This document shows, in pieces, positions 13,106 through 30,212 of a stretch of 64,000 bases of DNA. Source of the stretch: Nannocystis sp. RBIL2 (GTDB lineage: Bacteria > Myxococcota_A > Polyangia > Nannocystales > Nannocystaceae). The stretch is from NCBI RefSeq assembly GCF_026626745.1, contig NZ_JAPNJW010000001.1, forward strand, positions 588,311 to 652,310, read 5' to 3'. The notes below the pieces were generated by a model that was not told the DNA's origin, did not search any database, and worked only from the letters and a program-made list of their open reading frames with translations. Both the position numbers and the translations under genes were made by a program. Position 1 is the first letter of the stretch; each line of letters opens with the position of its first letter.

Positions 13106-13310
13106 ACGTGCCCCGGAGCGGGCTCCGACGAAGCGCCTCTCGCAGAGGCGAGGGCGTCGTCGCCGACATCAGGGCTCCGCTCCCGCTCACCGCGCCCTTC
13201 ACCTGTCCCATCGGCCATCTCATCGGGAGCGAGACCATCCGCGATCGCCGGCCGAGGCGCGCAGCTTCGCGCGCACCGACGCCGCCCCTGTCATGCAGTA
13301 CCATCGCGCG

Positions 13311-14570
13311 ATGTCTCGCCTCGAAGCGCTCCTCCTGTGTGCCCCCTTGCTGGCAGCCTGCGGCGACAGCGGGCGGCCCCAGGACACCGCGAACGCCACC
13401 CTGACCACCAGCGGCCCCGGCCCGACCTCGACCGTCGACCCCACCGACGGCGCCGTCACCGACGGCACCACCACCGGCGAGCCGACCACCTCCACCACCT
13501 CGACTTCGGGCCTTCCCAAGCTCGACCTCGGCGCCCAGCCGGACCAGGGTGAGATGGCCACCACCGGCGAGTGTGCCGCCCAGATGTTGGAGCCGCAGGT
13601 CCAGTCGGTCGGCGTCGACATCGTCGTCGTCGTCGACACCTCCAACTCCATGCAGGCTGCGATCGCCGCCGTCGAGGCCAGCATCAACAACGATTTTGCC
13701 GCCATCCTCGGCGCCAGCAACGTCGATTACCGCGTCATCGTCATGGGCGACTACCCGCCCGGCGAGCAGCTCGACATCTGCATCAGCGCCCCGCTCTCCG
13801 GCACCGACTGCAACCCCCCACCGGCGGTCCCGGCGGTCACCGAGCGCTACAAGCACTACGACGGCATCACCGGCTCGGGCGCCTTCCTCGCCAACATCCT
13901 CGCCTGGTACACCACCCCCGATCCGCACGGCCTCGCCCCGAACGGCTACCGCGACTTCCTGCGCGACGGCACGCGCAAGGTCATCCTCGCCATGACCGAC
14001 GGCACCAGCGCCTCGGGCACCGACGCCGACGGCGACGCCTTCGACGCCGCCCTGCTCGCCCTCGACCCGCCGCACTTCGGCACCCCCGGCGCGCGCGACT
14101 ACGTCTTCCACACCATCATCACCATGGGCGCCAACAACCCGCCCGACGCCCCGTGGTTGCCGGGCGACCCGCTGCAGGGCGAGGGCGACTCGATCCAGCG
14201 GGTCAGCGTCATCAGCGGTGGTTGGCGCTTCCCGCTGTCGCAGACCGACGCCTTCGACGTCCTCTTCCAGGAGATCGCCAAGGACGTCGTCATGACCACC
14301 CCGATCGCCTGCTCCTTCCCGATCCCCGAGCCGCCGATGGGAACCATCGATCCGAACACCATCGAGATCGACTACCAGGTCGGCGGCGTCCCGCCGGTCA
14401 AGGCATTTCATCAGGTCGTCGACCTCGCCGCCTGCGAGGCCGACGCCTTCTACATCGAGAACGCCACGGTCATCCTCTGCCCCGACGCCTGCGGCCAGGT
14501 GCAGGCCGACCCGGCCGCCAAGCTCGACGTCCGCTACGGCTGCGACGTCGGCTTCGATCCTGCTGGTTGA
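13311..14570 (+). CDS. von Willebrand factor A (vWA) domain lipoprotein
   Basis: Lipobox LLAAC, Thr-rich linker. A MIDAS-like DxSxS motif is present (VVVVDTSNSM). Confidence 0.7.
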   Translation: MSRLEALLLCAPLLAACGDSGRPQDTANATLTTSGPGPTSTVDPTDGAVTDGTTTGEPTTSTTSTSGLPKLDLGAQPDQGEMATTGECAAQMLEPQVQSVGVDIVVVVDTSNSMQAAIAAVEASINNDFAAILGASNVDYRVIVMGDYPPGEQLDICISAPLSGTDCNPPPAVPAVTERYKHYDGITGSGAFLANILAWYTTPDPHGLAPNGYRDFLRDGTRKVILAMTDGTSASGTDADGDAFDAALLALDPPHFGTPGARDYVFHTIITMGANNPPDAPWLPGDPLQGEGDSIQRVSVISGGWRFPLSQTDAFDVLFQEIAKDVVMTTPIACSFPIPEPPMGTIDPNTIEIDYQVGGVPPVKAFHQVVDLAACEADAFYIENATVILCPDACGQVQADPAAKLDVRYGCDVGFDPAG

Positions 14571-14591
14571 ACGGCCCGGGCTCGACGTCCG

Positions 14592-15581
14592 CTACGGCTG
14601 CGACGTCGCCTCCGACCCCGCCGGCGGAGCCTCGCCCGGGCCTTCCGCCGGCCCCTCCGTCGCGTTCCCCGTCGCCATTCGGCGCCACACCGCCGGCAGC
14701 CCGATCTCGAGGAACACCGGGAAGCGATAGCCCTCGTAGCGGCGCTCGAGCGCCGCGCGCACCCGCAGCACCGCGGCGGGGTCCGGCGGCAGCGTCGGCT
14801 TCTCGGCCGCCACCAGCGACAGCACCGTCTGCAGGTACTCGCGCTGGTTCGCCACCAGCTCCGGCCCGCCCGAGCGGCCGCGGCCCGGATGCACGTGCTT
14901 CGGCTGCATCGCCTCGATCTCCGCCAGCCGCTGCAGCCACGCCTCGGGCTCGCCGATCTCGAGCCACGCGTGGGCCTTGTTGGCCACCAGGTCGCCGACG
15001 AACACGTGGTCCTCCCATTGAATCACCACGTGGGCCGGGCTGCAGCCTGGCCCGAGCACGTGCGCCTTCAGCTCGAGGCCCGCCAGCTTCAGCGTCGTCG
15101 TCGCCGCCCCGAAGCTGCGCGGCTGCGGCACCGCGGTCGGCCAGTCGGGCGCGTAGCGCTCGGCGAACGCCTCCGTGCGCTTCGCGAACACCTCGGGGAT
15201 CTGCGCCAGCACCTGCTCGGCGGTCCACACCTCGATCCCGCGGGCCTGGAACGTCGCGGTGCCGTTGAACTTGTCGGGGTTCGCGTGCAGCACGATCGCC
15301 GCCACCACCTTCTTGCGGGTCACGCGCTCGGCCGCCGCGATGACCTCGGCCGCGACCGACGGCAGGAACTGCACGTCGATCACCACCACCCCGTCGGGCC
15401 CTTCGATCCAGAAGCTCGACGTGTCGAACGACCAGCCCGACGAGATGTACTGCCCGATCCGCCGCTCTGAAAGCGGCACCTCCACCCGGCCCGTCATCGG
15501 CGTCGACGAGTGGCTCACGCAGGCGAGCCCCGAGGTGACGAGCGACGCGAGGGTGACGAGCTGAAGCGCGCGAGCGAACAT
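14592..15581 (-). CDS. lipoprotein, possible MBL-fold-like hydrolase
   Basis: Lipobox LVTSGLAC. The 329-aa product has His-containing motifs (VLHANPDKF, AHVVIQWEDHVFVGDLV) that weakly resemble a metallo-beta-lactamase fold. Confidence 0.5.
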   Translation of the reverse strand: MFARALQLVTLASLVTSGLACVSHSSTPMTGRVEVPLSERRIGQYISSGWSFDTSSFWIEGPDGVVVIDVQFLPSVAAEVIAAAERVTRKKVVAAIVLHANPDKFNGTATFQARGIEVWTAEQVLAQIPEVFAKRTEAFAERYAPDWPTAVPQPRSFGAATTTLKLAGLELKAHVLGPGCSPAHVVIQWEDHVFVGDLVANKAHAWLEIGEPEAWLQRLAEIEAMQPKHVHPGRGRSGGPELVANQREYLQTVLSLVAAEKPTLPPDPAAVLRVRAALERRYEGYRFPVFLEIGLPAVWRRMATGNATEGPAEGPGEAPPAGSEATSQP

Positions 15582-15858
15582 CGGCTGCGAAGGCTAGTGC
15601 CCTCGCCGCGCCGTGTCCACCGGCGGCGCGCATGTCTCGAAGGACATCCGCACGCGCCGAACCCTCCCACGGCCGCGCCCAGGCCCCATCTCCGGCCGGC
15701 GCGCGCAGCACCGGGCGCAGTCACGCCCGGGGTCCCCGGCTAGCGCGCCGCGTGGCTCTCGGGCCGACCGGGGCGAGCCCGCCCGGGCATCCCCGGGCGC
15801 CGCGCGGAGCGTCGCGTGGTATGAGATCGTAGGCTGGCCCAGCCCGCGCGGGAGTCTT

Positions 15859-16818
15859 ATGCGACATGTCTTCAAGTACAGCTTCACCGTCTCTGCCCTC
15901 GTCCTCGCCGCCTCCGCCTGCGGCGACTCCGGGGCCGTTCAAGGCAGCTCCGCCACCGACGCGACCACCATCAGCAGCCTGAGCGCCGGCACCATCGAGC
16001 CGGGCACCACCGAGCCCGGCACCACCGACCCCGGCACCACCGATCCGGGCACCGCCGCGACCACCGTCGAGCCCACCACCGCCGAGCCCACCACCGGCCC
16101 CGTCGATCCCTCGACCACCACTACCACCACCGAGCCCGGCACCACCACCACCACCACCACGGAGACCAGCACCACCACCACCACCGGCGAGCGGCCGCCG
16201 GAGTGCGTCTCGGTGCTCAAGGCCACCGTGCGCGACTTCAAGGCGAGCCATCCCGACTTCGAGAGCTACGGCGGCACCGTCGACGGCCTCGTCCAGGCCG
16301 ACCTCGGGCCCGACAAGAAGCCGGTCTACGCCCACGCCGGCGGCACCTCGGTCACCACCGGCCCGGCGGAGTTCGCCCAGTGGTACAACGACGTCGCCGA
16401 CGTCAATCAATCGTTCGAGATCGAGATCATGCTGACCGAGACGATGCCCGGTCAATACACCTACCAGAACAACGACTTCTTCCCGATCGACGATCAGGGC
16501 TGGGGCAACCAGGGCAACAACCACAACTTCCACTTCACCACCGAGATCCACACCGACTTCACCTATGCGGGCGGCGAGGTGTTCACCTTCACCGGCGACG
16601 ACGATCTGTGGCTGTTCATCAACGGCAAGCTCGCCATCGACCTCGGCGGCGTCCACGGCGCCCTCAGCGAGACCATCGACATCGACAGCAACGCCGGTTA
16701 CTTCGGCATCCAGCTGAACGGCACCTACTCGATGGACATCTTCCACGCCGAGCGTCACACCACCCAGTCGAACTTCCGCATCGACACCAGCATCAACTGC
16801 TTCATCGTCCCGGGCTGA
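15859..16818 (+). CDS. fibro-slime (PA14-like) domain lipoprotein
   Basis: Lipobox LAASAC and a Thr/Pro-rich linker. The C-terminal domain carries DFFPIDDQGWGNQGNNHNFHFTTEI...FTFTGDDDLWLFINGKLAIDLGGVHG. This is characteristic of the fibro-slime / PA14-related domain. Confidence 0.65.
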   Translation: MRHVFKYSFTVSALVLAASACGDSGAVQGSSATDATTISSLSAGTIEPGTTEPGTTDPGTTDPGTAATTVEPTTAEPTTGPVDPSTTTTTTEPGTTTTTTTETSTTTTTGERPPECVSVLKATVRDFKASHPDFESYGGTVDGLVQADLGPDKKPVYAHAGGTSVTTGPAEFAQWYNDVADVNQSFEIEIMLTETMPGQYTYQNNDFFPIDDQGWGNQGNNHNFHFTTEIHTDFTYAGGEVFTFTGDDDLWLFINGKLAIDLGGVHGALSETIDIDSNAGYFGIQLNGTYSMDIFHAERHTTQSNFRIDTSINCFIVPG

Positions 16819-16930
16819 CGTGAAGCTCGTCGATGCGCACTCGGCGTGGACGCAGCCTCGCCCCGGCGCTCGCGTCGCTCGGCGCGCGTCGGCTTGACGC
16901 CCGCGGCCCGCACGTACGATCGTCCCACTC

Positions 16931-17683
16931 ATGCGGAGCCACGCCCCCGTCGCAGCCGTCCTCGCGCTGGTCGCCTGTGCGAGCGATTCGTCGCCCAGCC
17001 CCGCGTCGCCAAACCAGGCTCCTCCGGCGGCAGCGTCGGTCGCTGCGCTGGCCGACGCCGCGGCCCCGCAGACGCCTCAGCACTGGCTCGATCTGCGGCC
17101 GGGGCGCCACACCGCGGTCCCATTTGCGATGTCGATCCCGACGGAGCTCGCCGGCGTGCAGACGCGGTTCGTCCGGGCCGTGGCGACGCAGGAGGCCTGG
17201 GTGCAGCAGTACCTCGCGGAGCTGCGATTGCCGCCCGGCGCCCCGTTGCCGTACCACCCGAACCTCGGGGTGAGCGAGGCCGAGTACCAGCAGCTCCTCC
17301 ATGCGTATGAGCACCCGATCGTCGTCGAGGCTGACAAGCGCGACCTCGAGGTCCGGATCGAGCGCGGCGCGTTGCGGTTCTCCGCGCCTGAGCCCCTCGC
17401 GGCCGTCGATCTGCTGACGCTCGAGGCTGGCGGCCGCGCGCGTTACGGCGACGACGTGGTCGTCGACGGTCCCGAGCGGATCGAAGGGCTGCAAGGGAGC
17501 TTCGGCACGTGGTCGGGCTTCGCCTGGCGGCACGACGCCTCGAGCCTCGTCTCGCGCACGATCGACGTCCTCGACGTCGAGCTGGGCCGAGTCGCTGGCC
17601 GGCGATTCCTCCACCTCGCCCGCCGACGCGGCGACGGCACCGCCATGACCGAGGCCACCGAGCTGTTGGCCTGGATCGATTGA
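16931..17683 (+). CDS. hypothetical lipoprotein
   Basis: Lipobox LVACAS. The 250-aa product has non-repetitive composition. Confidence 0.55.
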
Positions 17684-17867
17684 CGTCCGAGGTCTCCGTC
17701 CGCTTGCAATGTATGCCGCGAACGCCTCGTCCGCGGCCCGCTCTGCGCACGCGGGCCGGGTGGTCTCGCGCGCATCTGCCTGCGCGAAGCGCCGGGCGTC
17801 GGCGGCGCCGGCTCTGCGCTGCGAGGCGGCTCCCCGGCCTGCGATCCGTTCGCGTACCATCCCCCCC

Positions 17868-19535
17868 ATGAAACTGTTTGTATGGGGGAGCAGGGGTGCA
17901 TTTGCGACGGTGCTCGTCGCGGCGGGGTGCGGAGACAGCGGCGTCGCGGTCACCACCGACACGGCCACGACCGACACGGCCACGCAGGCGACGACCAGCG
18001 GCGACAGCAGCAGTGAGCCGGCCCCGACCACCGGCGTACCGACCACCGGCGACAGCACGCTCGGCACCGGCGACGCCACTGATTCGACCACCACCACCAC
18101 CGGCGACACCACCACGACCTCGACCACCACCACCTCGGTCGACACCACCGACGCCACCACCACCTCGGTCGACACCACTGATTCGACCAGCACCGGCCCC
18201 GCCCCGTTCTGCGGCGACGGCGACGTCGACGACGGCGAGGCCTGCGACGACGGTCCGGCCAACGCCGACGACGGCAACTGCACCCTCGCCTGCGCCGAGG
18301 CCGTGTGCGGCGACGGCCTCGTCCACGCCGGAGTCGAGGCCTGCGACGACGCCAACGACGACGACGACGACGCCTGCAGCAACACCTGCGCCCTCGCCAC
18401 CTGCGGCGACGGAGCGGTCCAGAACGGCGAGGCCTGCGACGACGGCAACGCCGACGACACCGACGCCTGCCTCTCCACCTGTCTCGCCGCCAGCTGCGGC
18501 GACGGCCACGTCCAGGCCGGCGTCGAGCAGTGCGACGACGGCAACGCCGACGACACCGACGCCTGCCTCTCCACCTGCCAGGCCGCCAGCTGCGGCGACG
18601 GCCACGTGCAGGACGGCGTCGAGGCATGCGACGACGGCAACCCCGACGACGGCGACGCCTGCCTCTCCACCTGCCAGGCCGCCATCTGCGGCGACGGCCA
18701 CGTGCAGGCCGGCGTCGAGCAATGCGACGACGCCGACGCCGACGACAGCGACGCCTGCCTCGCCGATTGCAAGGCCGCCACCTGCGGCGACGGCGTCATC
18801 CACGTCGGCGTCGAGCAGTGCGACGACGGCAACGACATCGACGGCGACGGCTGCACCAGCGCCTGCACCGTCCCGACGACCTGCGAGGACCTGCAAGCGG
18901 CCGTGCCGATGCTGCCGAGCGGCGTCTACGTCGTCGACCCCGACGGCGTCGGTGTCCAGGCCGGCTACCCCGTCTTCTGCGACATGGTCACCGCCGGCGG
19001 CGGCTGGACCTTGCTCGAGCGCAGCCCGCTCGGCGCCCAGACCATCGGCAAGGCGCTCTACAACGACCTCCCCATCAACCCCGCCGACCCCGCCAACGCC
19101 CGCCATCGCCTGTCCAAGGCGCAGATGACCGTCCTGCGCGACCTCTCGGCAGACATGCGCATCGACTGCCGCGGCGACGACTATCTGCTGACCGCTGCCG
19201 GCAACCTGTTCAATGGTCAAGGCGGACCGAACAGCTGCTTCAATTGGTCGCAGGTGCTCTACAAGGAGGCCCGCCTCAAGGGCAACTTCGTGCAGAACAA
19301 GACCATCTGCACCTGGCACGTCGGCACCTCCGAGGGCTGCGCCGGCGCCTGGCACATCGACGAGGTGGCCCAGAACCAGTACGGCTGCGGCCTCGTCAAC
19401 TACCCGTGGAAGGGCGCCGCGGTCGTCAGCCCCTCCGCCGACACCTTCGCCACCGACCCCAACACCCTCGACGCGGTAGGCCCGATCCACGACTGTCACA
19501 AGCCCGGCGCCGCCCGCTGGCTGATGGTCCGCTGA
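17868..19535 (+). CDS. lipoprotein with 7 Myxococcus cysteine-rich repeats and a C-terminal fibrinogen-related-like domain
   Basis: Lipobox LVAAGCGD. Seven tandem CGDGxVxxGxEACDDGNxDDxDACxxxC repeats are present. The C-terminal domain contains [21 protein letters not shown], resembling the fibrinogen-related domain (FReD) CDM-TDGGGWTV motif. Confidence 0.75.
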
Positions 19536-20538
19536 TCGCCGGGTTTCCTGCCGAACGCCGTACCACGCGGCGTTCGGCCGGTCTCCTCAATGGGCCTCGC
19601 GCCGCCCCCACGCCCCGTCACATCGATCACACATTCGTAGCCGGCGGTGCCCATTGCGAATGGGGCCTCACGGTCGAGGTCGGCGCTCCTCGCCCGATTC
19701 CAATGATAGCCTGTCGCCCTCGCCCTCCGGGTCAGTCGGCCCGCACTCGCGGCGCCGCAGCCGACCCTCGACCACGCGCCCGGCCCGCAGGCCCATCGGC
19801 GGGGCGCGCGCCGCGTCCGCCTCGCGAATGCGCACCCGGCCCTCCGGCCGAGTCGCGGCGCCGCGCCCGGCTCGCCCTCGTCCGCGTTTCGTCGGACCTG
19901 GCCGCGACCTTAACAAAGGAGTTCGCCACCGCCGCGGGAACAGCGTACTGACCGCGCCCACGCGCCCTGGCGCGGCATTGCGCGTCGATGCGACAGTGCC
20001 GACCCGCGCCGTCGCATCGCGCGAGCGGTGCATTTGCCGCGCGGACACAATGGCCATTGCCAGCCCGCGGGCCGCGTGCGGGCCCGCGCGGCGCGGGAAT
20101 CGGCACAGACCGCCGTCACGCCTTTCCGAACCCTCCCGCGTCGTCGCCAACCATGTGCATTTCGCCTGCGCTGCGAATCAGCCGCTGATCGGAATCGCCA
20201 CTTCCTGCGCTCGTCGGGCCCTCCGCCCACATCGCGGCACCGGTAGCGAATAGAACACGCATCATTTCCCCGCATGGCAGTTCGGGGCTCGCTTCGAATC
20301 GCGCGACCCGGCGCAGCGTGGTTTTCCTGGCCCTCCGCGCGCTGGGTCGCGCATTCCTCAGTCACGAATGCATCGTTTAATTAATCTTCGTTCCCCGAAA
20401 TTGTCTTGACGCCTCGCGATGACGGAGCGTAACCTCCGCCCGCGAGCTCGAACCGCGAAGGGCCGAATTTCGCCGACACGGCCCCCTGTCGAGCAGAATT
20501 GGAAAACGGCAGCAGAGCTGTCGGTGAAAAGGATAGTC

Positions 20539-21936
20539 ATGTCGATCGCAGGAAAGCCGGGAAATGATCAGCAGACCAGCCTCTCGACGGCTGCAGCGCG
20601 CCAGCTCGCCACGACGACGAAGTCCCCGCCGCAGATGCAGGGAATCTCGTCCCGCTGGCTGCTCAAATTGTTGCCCTGGGTGCACGTCAACGGCGTCTTC
20701 CGCCTCAATCGTCGCCTGAGCTACGCCGTCGGCGACGGCCGCGTCACCTTCTACAACACCGGCGCCAAGATCCAGGTCGTGCCGCTGGAGCTGACCGAGC
20801 TGCCGCTGTTCCGCGGCTACGAGGACCTCGAGGTGCTCAATGTGCTCGCCGGCCGCTTCGTGCAGAAGGAGTTCAAGGCGGGCGACGTGCTGACGCAGAA
20901 GGGCAACGAGGCCAACGAGATGGTCCTCATCGCCCATGGCAAGGTCAACAAGATCGGCACCGGCAAGTACGGCGACGAGAGCGTCCTGGAGACCCTGGCC
21001 GACGGTGATCATTACTCGTACCAGGCGATCCTCGAGTCGCAGGACTACTGGGATTTCACCGCCAAGGCAGTGACCGCCGGCAGCGTCCTGACGCTGTCGC
21101 AGGCGTCCTTCGAGGAGCTGGTCGCCCAGCACCCGTCGCTGCGCAAGCACGTCGACGAGTTCAAGGCGCGCTCGCAGAAGAAGCAGGACAACAGCGGCCA
21201 GGCCGCGATCGAGGTCGCCTCCGGCCACTCGGGCGAGCCCGTGCTGCCCGGCACCTTCGTCGACTACGAGACCTCCCCGCGGGAGTTCGAGCTCAGCGTC
21301 GCCCAGACCGTCCTGCAGGTCCACACGCGCGTGGCCGACCTGTTCAACGACCCGATGAATCAGACGCAGGAGCAGCTGCGCCTGACCGTCGAGGCGCTGA
21401 AGGAGCGCCAGGAGCACGAGCTCATCAACAACCACGAGTTCGGCCTGCTGCACAACGCCGACCTCAAGCAGCGGATTCACACCCGCAGCGGCCCGCCGAC
21501 GCCGGACGACATGGACAACCTGCTGGCGCTGGTGTGGAAGGAGCCGGCCTTCTTCCTCGCCCACCCGCGGACCATCGCGGCGTTCGGCCACGAGTGCAAC
21601 CGCGCGGGCATCTACCCGACGCCGATCGACCTGGGCGGCCATCACGTCCCGTCGTGGCGCGGCGTGCCGATCTTCCCCTGCAACAAGATCCCGATCTCCG
21701 ACACGCGCACCACCTCGATCCTGCTGATGCGCGTCGGCGAGAAGAACCAGGGCGTCATCGGCCTGCACCACAAGGGCATCCCCGACGAGATCGAGCCGAG
21801 CCTGTCGGTGCGCTTCATGGGCATCAACGAGAAGGCGGTCATCTCGTACCTGGTCAGCCTCTACTACTCGGCCGCCGTCCAGATCCCGGACGCGCTCGGC
21901 ATCCTCGAGAGCGTCGAGATCGGCCGCGCCGACTGA
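20539..21936 (+). CDS. family 2B encapsulin shell protein with inserted cNMP-binding domain (Cnb-like), paralog 1
   Basis: An AAGGA RBS lies 7 bp upstream. A CAP-like cNMP-binding domain is present ([46 protein letters not shown]). It is about 60% identical to the next gene. The gene sits immediately upstream of a GPP-methyltransferase / terpene-cyclase pair, as in cnb-mibS-gppmt operons. Confidence 0.7.
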
Positions 21937-22017
21937 GGCCCTCGTCGCACCCATCGGCGCTCCGGTCCTCGCGGCCCGGGGCGCCTCCGTCCGTGATGCC
22001 AGCCTGGAGACGTTGAC

Positions 22018-23421
22018 ATGTCGATTTTCGAGAAGTCCGGCCGTGATGGCGACGGACAGCAGCCGATGAGCCTCGGGACCCGAGCCGCGCGGCAGCTGGC
22101 GACGACCACCAAGACCCCGCCGCAGAACCAGGGGCGCACGCCTCGCTGGCTGTTGCGCTCGCTGCCCTGGGTCGACGTCACCGGTGGCACGTTCCGCGTC
22201 AATCGCCGCATGAACGTCGCGGTCGGGGACGGGCGGATCGAATTTACCAACATCGGCGCCAAGGCTCAGGTGATCCCGGCCGAGCTCACCGAGCTGCCGC
22301 TCCTGCGCGGATTCGCCGACGACGAGGTGCTCTCGCACCTCGCCAGCCGGTTCGTGCAGTCCGAGTTCAAGCCGGGCCAGCTCATCGCCGAGCGCGGCAA
22401 GCCGGCCGACCACGTGTACCTGCTGGTCCACGGCAAGGCCAACAAGCTCGGCGAGGGCCCCTACGGCGACGAGATCATGCTCGAGGTGATCGCCGACGGC
22501 GCGCACTTCGGCGATCACGCGCTCGTGCAGGACGACGACGCCTGGGACTACAGCGTCAAGGCGGTCACGCCGTGCATCGTCCTCGCGCTGCCGCAGACCG
22601 TGTTCGAGGAGCTGATCGGCCGCTCGGCCGCCCTGCGCGCGCACGTCGAGCGCTACAAGGAGCTGCTGAAGACCCCGCAGGACAAGCACGGCCAGGCGGC
22701 CATCCGCTTGACCGCGGGCCACCACGGCGAGGTCACCCTGCCGGGCACCTTCGTCGATTACGAGGCCTCGCCGCGCGAGTACGAATTGAGCCTCGCGCAG
22801 ACCATCCTGCAGCTCCATTCGCGGGTGTCGGATCTGTTCAACGATCCGATGGACCAGCTCGAGGAGCAGCTGCGCCTGACCATCGACGCCCTGCGCGAGC
22901 GGCAGGAGCACGAGCTCGTCAACAACCGCGACTTCGGCCTCCTTCACAACGCCGACTACAAGCAGCGGATCAACACCCGCAGCGGCCCGCCGACGCCCGA
23001 CGACATGGACGAGCTGCTGTGCCGGCGCCGCAAGACCCGGTTCTTCCTGGCCCACCCGCGGACGATCGCCGCCTTCCGCCGCGAGTGCACCCGCCGCCGG
23101 CTCGATCCGCCGAACGTCGAATACGAGGGGTCCATCGTCGCCGGCTGGCGCGGCGTGCCGATCCTGCCGTGCGACAAGATTCCGATCTCCGAGACGCAGA
23201 CCAGCTCGATCCTCGCCATGCGCGTCGGCCAGGACGCGCAGGGCGTCATCGGCCTGTATCGCAGCGGCCTCCCCGACGAGCGCGAACCCGGCCTGTCCGT
23301 CCGCAGGATGGGCACCAACGAGAAGGCCGTCGCCTCGTACCTCGTCAGCACGTATTACTCCGCAGCGGTCCTGATCCCGGACGCGCTCGGGATCCTGGAA
23401 AACATCGAGATCGGGCGCTGA
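22018..23421 (+). CDS. family 2B encapsulin shell protein with inserted cNMP-binding domain, paralog 2
   Basis: Collinear homology with 20539-21936 ([34 protein letters not shown]). Contains a cNMP-binding domain. Confidence 0.7.
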
Positions 23422-23475
23422 GCGCCCCCGCCGAGCGAGGCGCCACCTTGGGGCGCCTCGTCACAGTGCAACGAA

Positions 23476-24332
23476 AGAGAACCAACGATCACGAACACGC
23501 CCACCACGGCCAATAGCGTCCTGCGCAGCGAATACCAGAAGTCGGTCGCCAACTACTGGAACACCAACCAGAACGACCCCGTCAATCTTCTGCTCGGCCA
23601 CGTCGACGGCTACTACCACCACCACTACGGAATCGGCGCCGTCAATTGGTCGGTGCTGGAGCAGCCCGAGGCCACGCGCGACGACGCCATCATCCGCGAG
23701 CTGCACCGCCTCGAGCACGCGCAGGCGGAGCATCTGCTCAAGAAGCTCGGCCCGATCAAGCCCGAGAGCCGCCTGCTCGACGCCGGCTCCGGCCGCGGCG
23801 GCACCAGCCTCATGGCCCACGAGCGCTTCAAGTGCCAGGTCGACGGCGTGTCGATCTCGGAGTACCAGGTCGGCTTCGCCAACGAGCAGGCCGCCAAGCG
23901 CGGGTACACCGACAAGCTGAAGTACCACTTCCGCAACATGCTCGACACCGGCTTCGAGACCGGCTCGATAGACGCCATCTGGACCAACGAGACCACGATG
24001 TACGTCGACCTGTACAAGCTGTACGGCGAGTTCTCGCGGCTGCTGAAGGACGGCGGGCGCTACGTCTGCATCACCGGCTGCTACAACGACATCACCGGCG
24101 CGACGCCCAGTACATCTGCAACATCCACCCGCGCAGCGAGTACTTCGAGGCGATGGCGGCCAACAACCTCGTCCCGATCGAGGTCACCGACCTGACCCCC
24201 GACACGATCCCGTACTGGGAGCTCCGGACCCGCTGCTCGGTCGCCACCGGCGTCGAGGATCCGTTCCTGCGGGCCTACAAGGAGGGCAGCTTCCACTACC
24301 TCCTCATCGTCGCGGACCGCATCGTCCGCTGA
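23476..24332 (+). pseudogene. geranyl diphosphate 2-C-methyltransferase (SAM-dependent), apparently frameshifted and lacking a canonical start
   Basis: SAM motif I is LLDAGSGRGGTS, and GHVDGYYHHHYGIGAV...ELHRLEHAQAE is conserved. The reading frame switches near 24100-24116 between CYNDITGA and QYICNIHPRSEYFEAMAANNLVPIEVTDLTPDTIPYWELR, across ORFs 23653-24195 and 23646-24332. There is no ATG/GTG/TTG between the upstream stop at 23421 and the conserved N-terminal region. Confidence 0.55.
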
Positions 24333-24425
24333 CCATGACGGCGCCGGCCGGGGGTATGATCATACCTGCCGGCCGCTGCGATTTTCGCCGCCGCTCCTCG
24401 GCGGCCGCTGCAACAGAGGCGAGCG

Positions 24426-25573
24426 ATGACTGAGGCCAAGCGCACGACGGACCCGAACGATGTATCCGCCCTCCTCGCCGGACCGACCGGCCTGGGGACG
24501 CACGCCGCTCGCCTCGCGCAGCTGCTGAATCGGGCCGCGCCGGCGTTCTCGACCCGCCGCAGCCGGCCCTCGATCCCGCGTACGCCTGGCGGCGCTGGGG
24601 CGACGGCAGCGGGTCGTCGCTGTACTGCCCGATCACCGAGCGCATCAACGAGCCGCTGGCCGACGAGGTCGACGAGCGGCTCGCGGTCTGGGCCAAGGAC
24701 TGCGGCTTCGACGACGACGAGATCGTCAAGATCCGCAAGACCCGGTTCGGGCGGCTGGTGATGCTCACCCACGCCGATTGCGACGATCCGGACCGGCTGC
24801 TCATCGGCGCCAAGATGAACGCCGCGTGGTGGGCCGCCGACGACTACTACGCCGACGACAGCGCGCTCGGGGCGGTGCCGGAGCAGCTGCCGCCGCGCCT
24901 CGTCCTGGCGATGGCCGCCATGGATCCGCTGCCGCGCGCCGGCGAGTTCAGCGTCCCGCTCGAGCAAGCGATCGAGGCCGAGCGCGTGCTCGTCGCCCTG
25001 CGCTCGGGCCTCGAGCACATGGGCCGCTACGCCACGCACGAGCAGGTCCAGCGCACCTGCTACTCGACCTTCGCCATGTTCGTGTCGTGGAGCGCCTACG
25101 CGGCGTGGCGCCACACCGGCGAGTACCCGCCTGCCTGGAACTACCTGGCCGCGCGCCAGCACGACAGCTTTTACACCTCGATGACGCTGTGCGACGTCAT
25201 CGGCGGCTACCGCCTGCCCCCCGAGCTCTTCTACGACGCGCGGATCCGCCGCGCCGCGTTCCTGGCCGGCACGACGGTCGTCCTCGTCAACGACCTCTAC
25301 TCGGTGGCCAAGGACCTCGAGGACGCGAAGCCGCCGTGCAACATGGTCCTGCAGGTCGCGGCCGATCGCGGCTGCTCGATCGACGAGGCGACCGAGGTCA
25401 CCGTCCAGCTCCACAACGACCTCGTCCGCGACTTCGAGGCCAGCCACCGCGAGCTGCAGGCCGTCCCCAGCGTCGAGCTGCAGCGGTTCCTGCGCGCCCT
25501 GCGGGCGTGGATGGGCGGCGCGTTCGAGTGGCACGACAGCAACCCGCGCTACAAGACCGGCCGCAAGCCGTAG
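24426..25573 (+). CDS. class I terpene cyclase, 2-methylisoborneol-synthase-like (N-terminal region shows an apparent frameshift near 24540)
   Basis: Metal-binding motifs are DDYYADD and the NSE triad NDLYSVAKDLED. The conserved upstream helices (LYCPITERINEPLADEVDERLAVWAKDCG...FGRLVMLTHADCDD) are in frame with the body. They lack an in-frame start before the ATG at 24758. The only upstream ATG (24426) is in another frame. Confidence 0.6.
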
Positions 25574-25736
25574 GCCCTGCGCGCGTGCGCTGAATCGCCG
25601 CGCCGCGCGAGTGAGGAACAAGGGCGCCCCGCCCGCGCGCGCTCGGCATTCACGCCGCGCGGTCGATCACTACATTCACGGCTGGGCTCGCTGGCGGCGC
25701 TGCTTGCATGTGCAGCCATCTCGGCCATCTTCAGGC

Positions 25737-28700
25737 GTGACCGGCGATCCGCTCGCGTTCCTCCACCCGGCCGCCCGGGCGTGGTTCGAGGCCTGCTTTG
25801 ACGCGCCGACTTCCGCGCAGGTAGCAGGCTGGCCGGCGATCGAGGCCGGCGAATCGACGCTGCTGCTGGCGCCCACCGGCTCGGGCAAGACGCTGGCGGC
25901 GTTCCTCGGCGCGATCAACCGCGTCATGTTCGCGCCGGTGCCGCCGTCGGCGGAGCGCTGCCGCGTGGTCTACGTCTCGCCGATCAAGGCGCTCGGGGTC
26001 GACGTCGAGCAGAACCTGCGCTCGCCGCTGGCCGGCATCGCCGCGACCGCGGACCGGCTCGGCATGACCGTCCACACGCCGACTGTGGCGATCCGCAGCG
26101 GCGACACCCCGCAAAAGGCGCGTGCGCACATGCAGCGCCACCCGCCCGACATTCTCATCACCACGCCCGAATCGCTGTACATGCTGCTCACCAGCGAATC
26201 GCGGGCGATGCTGCGATCGGTCGACACCGTGATCGTCGACGAGATCCACAGCCTCGTCGCCAGCAAGCGCGGCAGCCACCTCGCCCTCTCGCTCGAGCGC
26301 CTCGAGTGGCTCCGCGCCGGCGCGGAGCCGCTGCAGCGGATCGGCCTGTCCGCGACCCAGCGCCCGCTCACCGAAGTGGCGCGCTTCCTCGGCGGCTCGG
26401 TCGTCGACGGCGACGCGATCGCGCCGCGGCCAGTGACGATCGTCGACGCCGGCCAGGTCAAGCAGCTCGACCTGCGGATCGAGATGCCCGTCGAGGAGCC
26501 CGGCGCGAGCATCGAGGACGTCCCGCCGGCCGCGAACGAGGGGCCGACCGCGATCTCGGGGCTCCCGCGCTCCAACCTCACCGCCCTGCACCCGCGCCTC
26601 GTCGAGCTGATCCGCGCCCACCGCTCGACCATGCTGTTCGTCAACAGCCGCCGCCTCGCCGAGCGGCTCGCTGCGGCGCTCAACGAGGTCGCGGGCGAGC
26701 CGCTGGCGCTCGCGCACCACGGCTCGATGGCCAAGGACGTGCGCGCCGGGGTCGAGGAGCAGCTCAAGCGCGGCACCTTGCCGGCGATCGTCGCCACCTC
26801 CTCGCTCGAGCTCGGCATCGACATGGGCGCGGTCGACCTCGTGATCCAGCTGGCCTCGCCGCCGTCGATCGCCGCCGGCATGCAGCGCGTCGGCCGGGCC
26901 AACCACCACGTCGGCGGGCGCTCGCGCGGCGTCATCATCCCCAAGTTCCGCGGCGACCTGCTGCCGTGCGCCGCGGCGGCGCGGGCGATGCTCGCCGGCG
27001 AGGTCGAGTCGTCGCGTTACCCTCGCAACCCGCTCGACATCCTCGCCCAGCAGGTCGTCGCCGCGGTGGCGATGGACGACTGGGCCGCCGAGGCGCTGTA
27101 CGACAAGCTGCGCGCCGCCGCCCCGTACGCCGAGCTGCCGCGCGACGCCTTCGAGGGCGTGCTCGACATGCTCAGCGGCCGCTACCCGAGCGAGGACTTC
27201 GCCGACCTGCGCCCGCGCGTCAACTACGACCGCGTCACCGGTCAGCTGTCGGCGCGCCACGGCGCCCGCCGGGTGGCGATCGGCAACGCCGGCAGCATCC
27301 CCGACCGCGGCCTGTTCGGCGTGTTCCTCGCCGGCAGCGGCGAGGGCGGCCGCCGCGTCGGCGAGCTCGACGAGGAGATGGTGTTCGAGTCGCGGATCGG
27401 CGACGTATTCGTGCTCGGCGCCTCGTCGTGGCGCATCGAAGAGATCACCCACGACCGCGTGCTCGTCTCGCCAGCCCCGGGCGAGCCCGGCAAGCTGCCG
27501 TTCTGGCGCGGCGACGGCCCCGGGCGCCCGCTCGAGTTCGGCCAGGCGATCGGCGCCCTGATCCGCGAGCTCGGAGCGCTGTCCGACGCCGACGCCGAGG
27601 CCCGCCTCGTCCAGCAGCACTGCCTCGATCCGGCCGCGGCCCGCAGCCTCCTGCAGTACGTGCGCGAGGAGCAGGAAGCAGCCAAGACCTTGCCGACCGA
27701 TCGCACGATCGTCGTCGAGCGCTTCCGCGACGAGATCGGCGACTGGCGCGTCTGCATCCTCTCGCCGTTCGGCGCCGCCGTGCACGCCCCGTGGGCGATG
27801 GCGGTGCGCAGCGCCCTGCTCGAGCGCTACGCCGCCGAGCTCGACGTCGTCTGGTCCGACGACGGCATCGTGTTCCGCCTGCCCGAGGCCGAGCGCGCGC
27901 CCGACCCGACGCAATTCTTCCCGCGCGCCGACGAGCTCGAGGACCGCGTGGTCGCGCGCCTCGCCGAGACCTCGCTGTTCGCCACCCGCTTCCGCGAGAA
28001 CGCCGGACGGGCGCTGCTGCTGGTCAAGCGCCGACCCGGCCAGCGCACCCCGCTGTGGGCGATGCGGCGCAAGTCGGCCGACCTGCTGGCCGCCGCCTCG
28101 CGCTTCCGCGACTTCCCGGTCGTGCTCGAGACCTACCGCGAGTGCCTGAAGGACGTGTTCGACCTGCCCGGCTGCGTCGACCTGCTGCGCCGCGTCGAGC
28201 AGCGCGCGATCAAGGTCGTCGACGTCGAGACGCGCAGCCCGAGCCCGTTCGCCGCGGCCCTGCTGTTCAACTACGTCGGCAACTTCATGTACGAGGGCGA
28301 CGCCCCGCTGGCCGAGCGGCGCGCCCAGGCCCTGACGATCGACCACGCGCGTCTCAAGGCGCTGCTCGGCGAGGCCGCCCTGCGCGACCTGCTCGACGCC
28401 GACGCGATCGCCGAGCTCGAGGCGACCCTGCAGCGGCGCGCTCGCAAGCTCAACCACCCCGACGAGATCCACGACCTGCTGCTCGCGCTCGGCGATCAAG
28501 AGCGCGACGACCTCGTCGCCCGCGCCGGCGTCGCCGAGGACGAGATCGATCGCTGGCTGGCCGAGCTCACGCACACCCGCCGGATCGTCAGGGTCAAGCT
28601 CGGCGGTCGCTGGCGCTACATCGCCGCCGAGGACGCCGGCCGCTACCGCGACGCGCTCGGCGTCGTCTCGCCGCCGGGCCTGCCGGCAGTGTTCCTCGAG

Positions 28701-30212
28701 TCGGTCGAAGATCCGCTGGCCGACCTCGTCGCCCGCCACGCCCGCACTCACGGCCCGTTCCGCGCCGAGTGGCTGGCCCAGCGCTTCGCTGTCGGCACCG
28801 CCCTGGTCATCGGCGCGCTGCGTCGCCTCGCCGCCCGCGGCAAGGTCGTCGAGGGCGAGTTCATCCCCCGCGGCGCGGGCCTCGAGTGGTGCGACGACGA
28901 GGTCCTGCGCCGGCTCAAGCGCATGTCGCTGGCGCGCCTGCGCGAGGAGGTCGAGCCGGTCGAGCAGGCGGTGCTCGGCCGCTTCTCGCTCGCGTGGCAG
29001 GGCATCGGCGGCGAGCGCGAGGGCCCCGAGGCGGTGCTGCAGGCGATCGAGCAATTGCAAGGAGTCGCGATCCCGGCCTCGGTGCTCGAGGGCGAGGTCT
29101 TGCCGGCGCGGGTCGCCAACTATCGTGCCACCGATCTCGACGTTTTGTGCGGCGCCGGCGACGTCGTCTGGCGCGGCGTCCGGCCGCTCGGCCAGGCCGA
29201 CGGCTACGTCGCGCTCTACCTCGCCGACGACGCCGCCTGGCTCACGCCCGACCCCACCCCGGCCGCCGGCGAGCTCGCCGCGCGCGTGCGCGAGGCCCTG
29301 CAGGCCCGCGGCGCCTCGTTCTTCGCCGAGCTCGTCACCCAGGTGCACGCCCCGACCGACGAACTACTCGAGGCGCTGTGGGACCTCGTGTGGGCCGGCG
29401 AGGTCACCAACGACACCCTCACCTGTCTGCGCAGTCGCCTCGCCGGCGGCGATCGGGGCCCGCGCCCGCAGCTGCGCTTCGGCGTCGACGGCCGCGGCCG
29501 ACGCAGCGGCCCGCCGGGCAGCGAAGGTCGCTGGTCGCTCGTCACTCCGCGCCCCGTCGACGAGACCGAGCGCCGGGCCGCCCGCGCCCGCCAGCTGCTC
29601 GCGCGCCACGGCGTGCTCACCCGCGAGGCGGTCGCCGCCGAGGATCACGACGGCGGCTTCGCGGCCGTCTATCCTGTCCTCAAGGCCATGGAGGAGGCCG
29701 GCCGGGTGCGCCGCGGCTACTTCGTCGCCGGCCTCGGCGCGACCCAGTTCGCCCTGCCCGGCGCCGAGGATCGCCTGCGCGACGTCCGGGACATCGACGA
29801 GGACGCGCCCTTCACCGTCCTGCTCGCCGCCACCGATCCAGCCAACCCGTACGGCGCCGCGCTGCCGTGGCCGGATGTCCCCGAGGCCAGGTTCGAACGA
29901 GCCGCCGGCGCCCGCGTGGTCCTGCGCGACGGCCGGCTCATCGCCTTCCTCAGCCGCGGCGCCCGCTCGCTCGTCACCAACCTCCCCGACGCCGAGCCGG
30001 AGCGCGGGCGCGCCACCACGGCCCTCGCCGAGGCCCTCGCGCTGCTGCCCGAGGTCACCGGCCAGCGCTACGTCCTGCTCGAGCAGATCGACAATCAACC
30101 GGCCCCCGCCTGGCCACAGGTCGCAGCATTCACCGCCGCCGGCTTCCGCCCCACCCACGACGGCCTGATCCTGCGCCGCGACGAGCCGCGCCTCGGCGCG
30201 AGGAGGCGCTGA
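25737..30212 (+). CDS. lhr: ATP-dependent helicase Lhr (large helicase-related, DEAD/DEAH box)
   Basis: Walker A (APTGSGKT), DEIH box (VIVDEIHSL) and helicase C motifs. Total length about 1490 aa with the long Lhr C-terminal extension. Confidence 0.85.
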   Translation: MTGDPLAFLHPAARAWFEACFDAPTSAQVAGWPAIEAGESTLLLAPTGSGKTLAAFLGAINRVMFAPVPPSAERCRVVYVSPIKALGVDVEQNLRSPLAGIAATADRLGMTVHTPTVAIRSGDTPQKARAHMQRHPPDILITTPESLYMLLTSESRAMLRSVDTVIVDEIHSLVASKRGSHLALSLERLEWLRAGAEPLQRIGLSATQRPLTEVARFLGGSVVDGDAIAPRPVTIVDAGQVKQLDLRIEMPVEEPGASIEDVPPAANEGPTAISGLPRSNLTALHPRLVELIRAHRSTMLFVNSRRLAERLAAALNEVAGEPLALAHHGSMAKDVRAGVEEQLKRGTLPAIVATSSLELGIDMGAVDLVIQLASPPSIAAGMQRVGRANHHVGGRSRGVIIPKFRGDLLPCAAAARAMLAGEVESSRYPRNPLDILAQQVVAAVAMDDWAAEALYDKLRAAAPYAELPRDAFEGVLDMLSGRYPSEDFADLRPRVNYDRVTGQLSARHGARRVAIGNAGSIPDRGLFGVFLAGSGEGGRRVGELDEEMVFESRIGDVFVLGASSWRIEEITHDRVLVSPAPGEPGKLPFWRGDGPGRPLEFGQAIGALIRELGALSDADAEARLVQQHCLDPAAARSLLQYVREEQEAAKTLPTDRTIVVERFRDEIGDWRVCILSPFGAAVHAPWAMAVRSALLERYAAELDVVWSDDGIVFRLPEAERAPDPTQFFPRADELEDRVVARLAETSLFATRFRENAGRALLLVKRRPGQRTPLWAMRRKSADLLAAASRFRDFPVVLETYRECLKDVFDLPGCVDLLRRVEQRAIKVVDVETRSPSPFAAALLFNYVGNFMYEGDAPLAERRAQALTIDHARLKALLGEAALRDLLDADAIAELEATLQRRARKLNHPDEIHDLLLALGDQERDDLVARAGVAEDEIDRWLAELTHTRRIVRVKLGGRWRYIAAEDAGRYRDALGVVSPPGLPAVFLESVEDPLADLVARHARTHGPFRAEWLAQRFAVGTALVIGALRRLAARGKVVEGEFIPRGAGLEWCDDEVLRRLKRMSLARLREEVEPVEQAVLGRFSLAWQGIGGEREGPEAVLQAIEQLQGVAIPASVLEGEVLPARVANYRATDLDVLCGAGDVVWRGVRPLGQADGYVALYLADDAAWLTPDPTPAAGELAARVREALQARGASFFAELVTQVHAPTDELLEALWDLVWAGEVTNDTLTCLRSRLAGGDRGPRPQLRFGVDGRGRRSGPPGSEGRWSLVTPRPVDETERRAARARQLLARHGVLTREAVAAEDHDGGFAAVYPVLKAMEEAGRVRRGYFVAGLGATQFALPGAEDRLRDVRDIDEDAPFTVLLAATDPANPYGAALPWPDVPEARFERAAGARVVLRDGRLIAFLSRGARSLVTNLPDAEPERGRATTALAEALALLPEVTGQRYVLLEQIDNQPAPAWPQVAAFTAAGFRPTHDGLILRRDEPRLGARRR

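Follow-up and report, generated by a model that had tools for sequence, protein, structure and literature searches.

The window analyzed here is a 64,000-nucleotide stretch of the Nannocystis sp. RBIL2 genome (contig NZ_JAPNJW010000001.1). It contains a gene for a predicted lipoprotein in which a low-complexity linker and seven cysteine-rich repeats precede a C-terminal head that resembles the fibrinogen-related domains (FReDs) and, in its predicted fold, the intelectins (Table 1). An earlier note, made from the sequence alone, had described a lipoprotein with seven such repeats and a FReD-like C-terminal domain and had suggested a surface lectin or adhesin. The ATG at position 17868 was taken as the start because the N-terminus with its lipobox recurs in the orthologues of four other Nannocystis species. 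The G+C content is about 71% throughout the window, and the gene (72%) is similar to the rest. Neither a sigma-70-like promoter nor an intrinsic terminator was detected near the gene, and an exact-sequence look-up of the protein in the protein collection returned no entry.

Table 1. Features of the predicted lipoprotein gene and the predicted lipoprotein genes upstream of it (positions within the window; aa, amino acids)
Feature	Position	Strand	Remarks
Longest open reading frame over the feature	17709-19535	+	608 aa
Gene as called from ATG 17868	17868-19535	+	555 aa
Lipoprotein signal peptide and lipobox	17868-17930	+	Read from the sequence; predicted lipidation at Cys21, with GDSG next to it
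Thr/Asp/Ser/Gly-rich low-complexity linker	17931-18209	+	Residues 22-114, 93 aa; from composition and Tandem Repeats Finder
Seven tandem Cys-rich acidic repeats	18210-18875	+	TIGR02232 (myxo_disulf_rpt), the same repeat as Pfam DUF4215; 31-32 aa and 4 Cys each
C-terminal head domain	18876-19532	+	Residues 337-555, 219 aa; divergent FReD-superfamily domain with an intelectin-like predicted fold
FReD subdomain-A-like module within the head	18879-19016	+	Residues 338-383; C-x31-CDM-x-T-x-GGGWT
Loop-rich conserved head segment (Cys/acidic/aromatic)	19323-19505	+	Residues 486-546; candidate ligand or metal site
Stop codon	19533-19535	+	
Lipoprotein gene, weakly VWA-like	13293-14570		
Lipoprotein gene, MBL fold	14592-15581	-	
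Lipoprotein gene, PA14/fibro-slime	15856-16818		
Lipoprotein gene, no Pfam or NCBIfam family	16931-17683		250 aa

The predicted signal peptide ends in a lipobox that follows the pattern [LVI][ASTVI][GAS]C, as read by eye from the sequence. Both the N-terminus and the lipobox are conserved in the Nannocystis orthologues (loci L002-L005), which read AAAGC, AGGC or AAGC at the lipobox position. The lipoprotein assignment, made in the earlier note from the same start codon, is supported by a lipobox that is kept in four other species, and the protein is probably lipid-anchored and surface-exposed. The linker that follows is encoded by short tandem repeats of 15-36 bp (Tandem Repeats Finder rows span 17947-18194) and is the least conserved part of the protein among the orthologues, with 60-81% identity and with insertions and deletions.

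The stalk is built from units of the type CGDGxVxxGxExCDDGNxDDxDACxxxCxxxx, which begin at residues 115, 147, 179, 210, 242, 274, and 306 (nucleotides 18210, 18306, 18402, 18495, 18591, 18687, and 18783). TIGR02232 matches the protein in 7 stretches with 128.1 bits (cut-off 20.8, E 7.1e-38), DUF4215 matches with 90.1 bits (cut-off 27, E 1.1e-25), and the DNA has a period of 96 bp in 6.8 copies at 18208-18854 according to Tandem Repeats Finder, all of which confirms the repeats. Their number is exactly seven, in agreement with the earlier note. The orthologues carry six or seven units, which are 77-91% identical. The likeness to other TIGR02232/DUF4215 proteins lies in these seven canonical units; that family is defined by the repeat alone. 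A search of the PDB sequences with the repeat region gave no match at E≤1. An AlphaFold model of three stalk repeats, built on a 14-row alignment, reached a predicted local distance difference test score (pLDDT) of 56 and a predicted template modelling score (pTM) of 0.34 and was left uninterpreted. The stalk is presumably rigid.

The C-terminal domain, estimated in the earlier note at roughly 200 aa, is a head of 219 aa. Its FReD-type motif spans residues 367-386 (420-439 when counted along the 608-aa reading frame) and is far beyond chance. With 56.5 bits, the NCBI model NF040941 (GGGWT_bact) lies well above its cut-off of 30, and it is matched over its whole length (positions 1-46 of 46) by residues 338-383. 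Pfam PF00147 (Fibrinogen_C) reaches 21.9 bits, just below its gathering threshold of 22, and is matched at positions 14-52 of 221 only. Pfam PF01410 (COLFI) scores 22.8 bits at positions 31-69 and falls short of its cut-off (26.2), so that membership in this family is not supported. A family profile of 17 head-family members (alignment A2), searched against the PDB sequences, matches solved FReDs and intelectins at E-values of 8.6e-9 to 1e-6, including fibrinogen beta, XEEL, tachylectin-5A, lamprey serum lectin, FIBCD1, MFAP4, tenascin, angiopoietins, and intelectin-1, almost always limited to query positions 1-51. The closeness to the FReD signature that had been claimed is therefore confirmed by NF040941 and by the PDB chains with E-values near 1e-8; a FReD model match above cut-off exists with NF040941 and just fails with PF00147 itself.

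Cys339 and Cys371 sit at the positions of the conserved FReD cysteine pair. Together with D372, M373, and G377-T381 they are invariant in the head family and align to fibrinogen beta 77-122. An hhalign comparison of the head with five canonical-type FReDs gave a probability of 99.2, confident only over positions 1-50. These profile comparisons significantly support homology of the first ~50 head residues with FReD subdomain A. The limited length of this region, about 50 residues alignable by sequence, could be taken to mean that the resemblance is convergent or a chance motif, or that the gene was recently acquired from a eukaryote. We consider all of these readings very improbable. The profile E-values of 1e-8, a matched region that includes the conserved cysteine pair, and the agreement of the whole predicted fold with FReDs (see below) all speak against convergence. 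Recent transfer is unlikely because the gene has a G+C content like that of the window and has orthologues and paralogues throughout the genus; related sequences are also widely spread among Myxococcota and Bdellovibrionota.

The remaining ~170 head residues cannot be aligned to FReDs by sequence, and a residue-level mapping of the whole head onto canonical FReDs was given up since hhalign offers no confidence beyond position 50. The P-subdomain Ca2+/ligand motif FSTxDxDND...C...GWWY..C[HN] is absent from all head-family members; a motif of the FSTxDxDND type is present in the canonical-type FReDs of the same deep search (proteins P0028, P0064, P0067, and P0090). We call the head FReD-like rather than a canonical FReD because its PF00147 score lies below gathering, the match covers 40 residues, and this motif is missing. 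With the canonical FReDs (fibrinogen beta/gamma, ficolins, tachylectin-5A, FIBCD1, angiopoietins) it shares the subdomain-A cysteine pair and CDM-x3-GGGWT; these proteins have a coiled-coil or collagen stalk, whereas the window protein has a stalk of Cys-rich repeats. NF040941 in turn spans the 46 residues of the subdomain-A signature, and the other ~170 residues of the head constitute a distinct conserved family. Protein P0028 (1208 aa) contains several FReD-like modules, one of the canonical type with FTTFDADND...C...FWYGAC at 734-985 and a C-terminal head (995-1208) of the Nannocystis type; it is possibly an evolutionary bridge between both.

An AlphaFold2 model of the head, based on a 17-sequence alignment, has a mean pLDDT of 83.9 and a pTM of 0.86 and is weakest at head residues ~150-200. 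Its best structural match is human intelectin-1 (score 10.3, 169 residues aligned), followed by H-ficolin and ANGPTL3 (8.8 each), FGL1 (8.6), fibrinogen beta (8.6/8.4), and fibrin/fibrinogen gamma (7.8/7.7). The procollagen C-propeptide scores 5.8 and the best unrelated fold at most 4.4. Foldseek likewise places intelectin-1, XEEL, and lamprey LSVL on top (E 5e-7, TMq ~0.5), with MFAP4, angiopoietins, ficolins, FIBCD1, and tachylectin-5A on the next ranks at TM 0.40-0.45. As modelled, the head belongs to the FReD superfamily and its shape is closest to the X-type lectins. A fold unrelated to fibrinogen C domains, which the earlier note had named as evidence that would count against its proposal, is not what the model predicts. 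A Foldseek search of viral proteins (BFVD) yielded predicted FReD/COLFI-like domains resembling the head (E 2e-5 to 4e-3) in proteins of cyanophages (S-ShM2, S-CAM8, P-HM2, P-SSM4, and one 'phage tail fiber-like protein') and of Pseudomonas phage PaBG, and was otherwise uninformative. In PHROGs, subdomain A weakly matches one unannotated family and nothing else.

Intelectins are described as chordate proteins in at least one account (PMC9434060). The X-type lectins (intelectin-1, XEEL, LSVL) provide the closest solved fold to the head model, at 15-18% identity and with a length of ~275 aa versus 219 aa. Alignment of the head family with intelectin-1 and XEEL by hhalign gave a probability of 97 (the human intelectin-1 sequence was verified against 4wmq). 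At relaxed thresholds, a collinear alignment of 180 columns is obtained in which several cysteines are paired and ...NLF... is shared, with low confidence. The Ca2+ ligands and aromatic box of human intelectin-1 are reportedly N243, N260, E262, H263, E274, W288, and Y297, of which we take N260, E262, and H263 to be the Ca2+/ligand residues carried by the CNTEHHC segment. In the low-confidence alignment, which is without statistical support, E499 faces E274 and W514 faces W288, and N260/E262/H263, and with them the CNTEHHC segment, have no counterpart in the head. When the 52 N-terminal residues are removed, the significance of this residue-level mapping is lost: the hhalign score against intelectin/XEEL drops to 13.5 (probability 0.2), the level of 60 column-shuffled control queries (13.2 ± 2.6, maximum 23.1). 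Because of this failed control, the equivalence with the intelectin binding site is kept as a lead and not as a result.

Conservation is unevenly distributed over the protein. The head is its best-conserved part among the orthologues (86-96% identity), and the loop-rich segment of residues 486-546 reaches the highest identity of all (92-98%). Eight cysteines of the head are conserved, seven of them invariant and Cys491 near-invariant. Within the loop-rich segment, G486, G490, D498, E499, Q502, C507, L509, P513, W514, D525, C543, and H544 are invariant in alignments A1 and A2; C491, A494, F527, and D535 are near-invariant. High conservation together with low model confidence in this segment fits a disulfide- or metal-stabilised functional site, and D498/E499, W514, D525, and C543-H544 are its probable ligand- or metal-binding residues.

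Orthologues with lipobox, linker, six or seven repeats, and head are encoded by N. pusilla (Na p29), N. punicea, N. exedens, and N. bainbridge. Because of these orthologues of the same architecture, with their highly conserved heads, the gene is real and under selection. In another N. pusilla assembly (GCA_049060185.1), the orthologue (P0001, L001:7669-9005) is called as a protein of only 334 aa. Its frame shifts within the repeat array at ~L001:8043, and the upstream repeats run on in another frame. Either the assembly has an indel within the repeats, or this copy is a pseudogene.

A word-indexed search with the head returned 24 relatives, the best from N. pusilla (98% identical). The homologues of N. 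pusilla and Nannocystis sp. ILAH1 are already named 'fibrinogen-like YCDxxxxGGGW domain-containing protein' (NCBI/UniRef), and many homologues come with precomputed PF00147 matches. An exhaustive profile search brought up 9100 proteins at E≤1e-3, of which 112 reach E≤1e-30. The full 217-position head is present in 47 of the 150 top representative clusters, and the remainder match only positions ~2-55. A narrow pattern scan of species-representative genomes gave 323 confirmed stretches; its patterns were derived from the head family itself, so that this list is biased toward relatives. With a curated NCBI model in existence and hits in these numbers, the view of the earlier note that bacterial FReD-like domains are rare was overstated.

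Full-length heads were found in Nannocystis species (96, 91, 88, and 87% identity) and in metagenome-assembled genomes (MAGs) of Nannocystis and other Nannocystaceae; outside this family they occur in Archangium MAGs (57%) and in one Chloroflexota MAG (44%). The short module occurs chiefly in Myxococcota, Bdellovibrio and Bacteriovoracaceae, Bradymonadaceae, and Oligoflexales. Among the top clusters that match only positions ~2-55, the module is often repeated 3-15 times within giant proteins, at a spacing of 200-260 aa. Three of these giants (P0025, 4522 aa; P0027, 3103 aa; P0031, 4035 aa) contain 14-15 subdomain-A copies at this spacing, with additional Sushi and EGF domains in P0027 and Dictyostelium-type repeats and a lamin-tail domain in P0025, and because of these domains they are probably eukaryotic.

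The full head is mostly a C-terminal domain and stands behind DUF4215 repeats, RCC1, Kelch propellers, MopE motifs, or LamG plus DUF4842. It is thus a portable tip module. A second locus in N. bainbridge, N. pusilla, N. exedens, N. radixulma, and N. punicea (L016-L020) encodes three tandem head paralogues per genome, which are 41-50% identical to the target head and have lipoboxes, Thr-rich linkers, and only 1-2 Cys repeats. This indicates a genus-wide expansion of the family to four copies per genome. The same observations bear on the idea that the head mainly folds, caps, sorts, or secretes the stalk and that the acidic repeats are the functional part, for example in binding Ca2+ or minerals. 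The repeats are indeed very acidic (CDDGNxDDxDAC) and cysteine-rich, and DUF4215 arrays occur in many proteins without such a head. However, the head is conserved more strongly than the repeats (86-96% vs. 77-91%), and since it also stands behind unrelated regions and occurs with only 0-2 repeats in paralogues, it is an independent functional module. We therefore regard a mere capping function as improbable.

Taken together, we rather favor the view that the protein is an envelope-anchored extracellular protein whose distal FReD/intelectin-like head binds a glycan or another ligand, as a lectin or adhesin. In this model, the N-terminal lipid at Cys21 would anchor the protein to the cell envelope. 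A long, flexible, Thr-rich tether followed by the stalk of seven acidic repeats, predicted to be disulfide-bonded, would hold the globular head off the cell surface at the distal end. The head may then recognize a glycan or another ligand of a surface or matrix and serve attachment to prey, substrate, or matrix, possibly in a Ca2+-dependent manner. Most FReDs and intelectins of solved structure act in recognition outside the cell. We prefer a binding head because nearly all structural relatives of the head are extracellular recognition heads placed C-terminally on stalks, because the head itself sits behind varied scaffolds, usually at the C-terminus, and because similar folds occur in the cyanophage tail-fiber-like proteins and DUF4215 repeats in an adhesive protein. 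The latter is a diatom adhesive trail protein with 12 DUF4215 repeats (bioRxiv 10.1101/2023.03.06.531300).

Several observations weigh against a lectin-like head. The TM-scores of the head model are only 0.4-0.5, the putative binding segment of residues 486-546 is modelled with the lowest confidence (pLDDT 60-75), and the stalk could not be modelled. No residue of the putative site has an equivalent in a known binding site: the P-subdomain motif of canonical FReDs is missing, and beyond the first 52 residues the comparison with intelectins does not rise above shuffled sequences. There is no conserved gene neighborhood that hints at a pathway. Nothing relevant came up when the literature was searched for FReD-like proteins of bacteria or myxobacteria. 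In addition, some FReDs, such as those of angiopoietins and tenascin, bind proteins and not sugars.

This last point leads to the main competing explanation, in which the head is a protein-binding or self-association module and the protein a structural or cross-linking component of matrix or slime. The structural matches include the FReDs of angiopoietin, tenascin, and MFAP4, the head lacks the canonical sugar/Ca2+ motif, and fold precedents exist in the angiopoietin and tenascin FReDs and in the trimerising C-propeptide of fibrillar collagen. The neighboring genes, too, encode lipoproteins with Thr-rich linkers and similarity to PA14/fibro-slime and, weakly, to VWA domains. However, true lectins (intelectin-1, XEEL, LSVL, H-ficolin) give the best structural matches, the COLFI match lies below cut-off and is structurally weaker, and the linkage to the neighboring lipoproteins is not conserved across Nannocystis species. 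A structural or cross-linking protein of this kind is a possibility that we take seriously and consider doubtful.

Within the preferred interpretation of a ligand-binding head, a more specific version can be proposed tentatively. The head may represent a prokaryotic FReD branch that resembles the intelectins in structure more than it does the canonical FReDs, with a conserved Cys/acidic/aromatic loop site of its own (D498-E499, W514, D525, C543-H544) for microbial or matrix glycans, displayed on stalks by predators for the recognition of prey or substrate. The predators in question are Nannocystis and other Myxococcota, and related modules occur in Bdellovibrionota and Bradymonadaceae. Bacteria would then possess a counterpart to an innate-immune lectin of animals, with implications for the evolutionary origin of FReDs and intelectins.

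We should note that the FReD-like signature is already recognized in bacteria, both by the curated NCBI model and in RefSeq protein names. The contribution made here lies in the domain boundary (337-555), in a Nannocystaceae-centered subfamily with its invariant residues, and in model-based evidence for a FReD/intelectin-like fold of the whole 219-aa head, beyond the 46-aa signature. Both FReDs and intelectins are familiar chiefly from animals, where they are found in clotting proteins, ficolins, angiopoietins, and anti-microbial lectins. Here, a myxobacterial genus keeps a conserved four-copy family that combines the FReD signature with ~170 residues predicted to complete an intelectin-like fold and that presents this head on a Cys-repeat stalk with a predicted lipid anchor. 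The present gain is a better annotation, with a boundary, a family alignment, and conserved residues for mutation. If the head is a lectin, it would offer a tractable bacterial model of ligand binding by this fold where the canonical Ca2+ motif is missing, and a candidate factor for prey or matrix recognition in predatory bacteria.

The target is the last of five consecutive predicted lipoprotein genes (13293-19535). The C|GDSG cleavage context and a Thr-rich linker are common to the VWA-like gene, the fibro-slime gene, and the target. The synteny of the VWA-like, MBL, and fibro-slime genes upstream and two encapsulin genes downstream is kept in N. pusilla and N. bainbridge and does not extend to N. 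punicea and N. exedens. Between the fibro-slime gene and the target lies a variable spacer. It harbors LysR and SDR genes in N. pusilla GCA_049060185.1, and the lipoprotein gene that occupies it in the window (16931-17683) has no tblastn counterpart in the related Nannocystis loci. Members of the Chloroflexota and Archangium types lie in unrelated neighborhoods, and no operon partner of the gene was found. The co-occurrence with the fibro-slime lipoprotein, which the earlier note had proposed to look for in related genomes, is therefore limited to N. pusilla and N. bainbridge, and since there is no conserved partner, a functional pairing of the two genes is unsupported.

Downstream of the target, two tandem genes (20419-21933 and 22018-23418) encode SrpI-like family 2 encapsulin shell proteins, each with a cyclic nucleotide monophosphate (cNMP)-binding domain. 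They are followed by genes for an S-adenosylmethionine (SAM) methyltransferase (23653-24192) and a terpene synthase (24758-25570), and the region 20419-25570 as a whole resembles a terpenoid cluster of the 2-methylisoborneol type that includes family 2B encapsulins. The methyltransferase reading frame (23653-24195) ends in a Ser/Thr/Arg-rich tail, and the C-terminal part of an overlapping reading frame in another frame (23646-24332) is plausibly protein-like. There may thus be a frameshift near 24100-24190, due to a sequencing error or a pseudogene. Further downstream of the terpene cluster, an Lhr-type helicase is encoded at 25611-30209, with DEAD, Helicase_C, and DEAD_assoc domains and four Lhr winged-helix domains.

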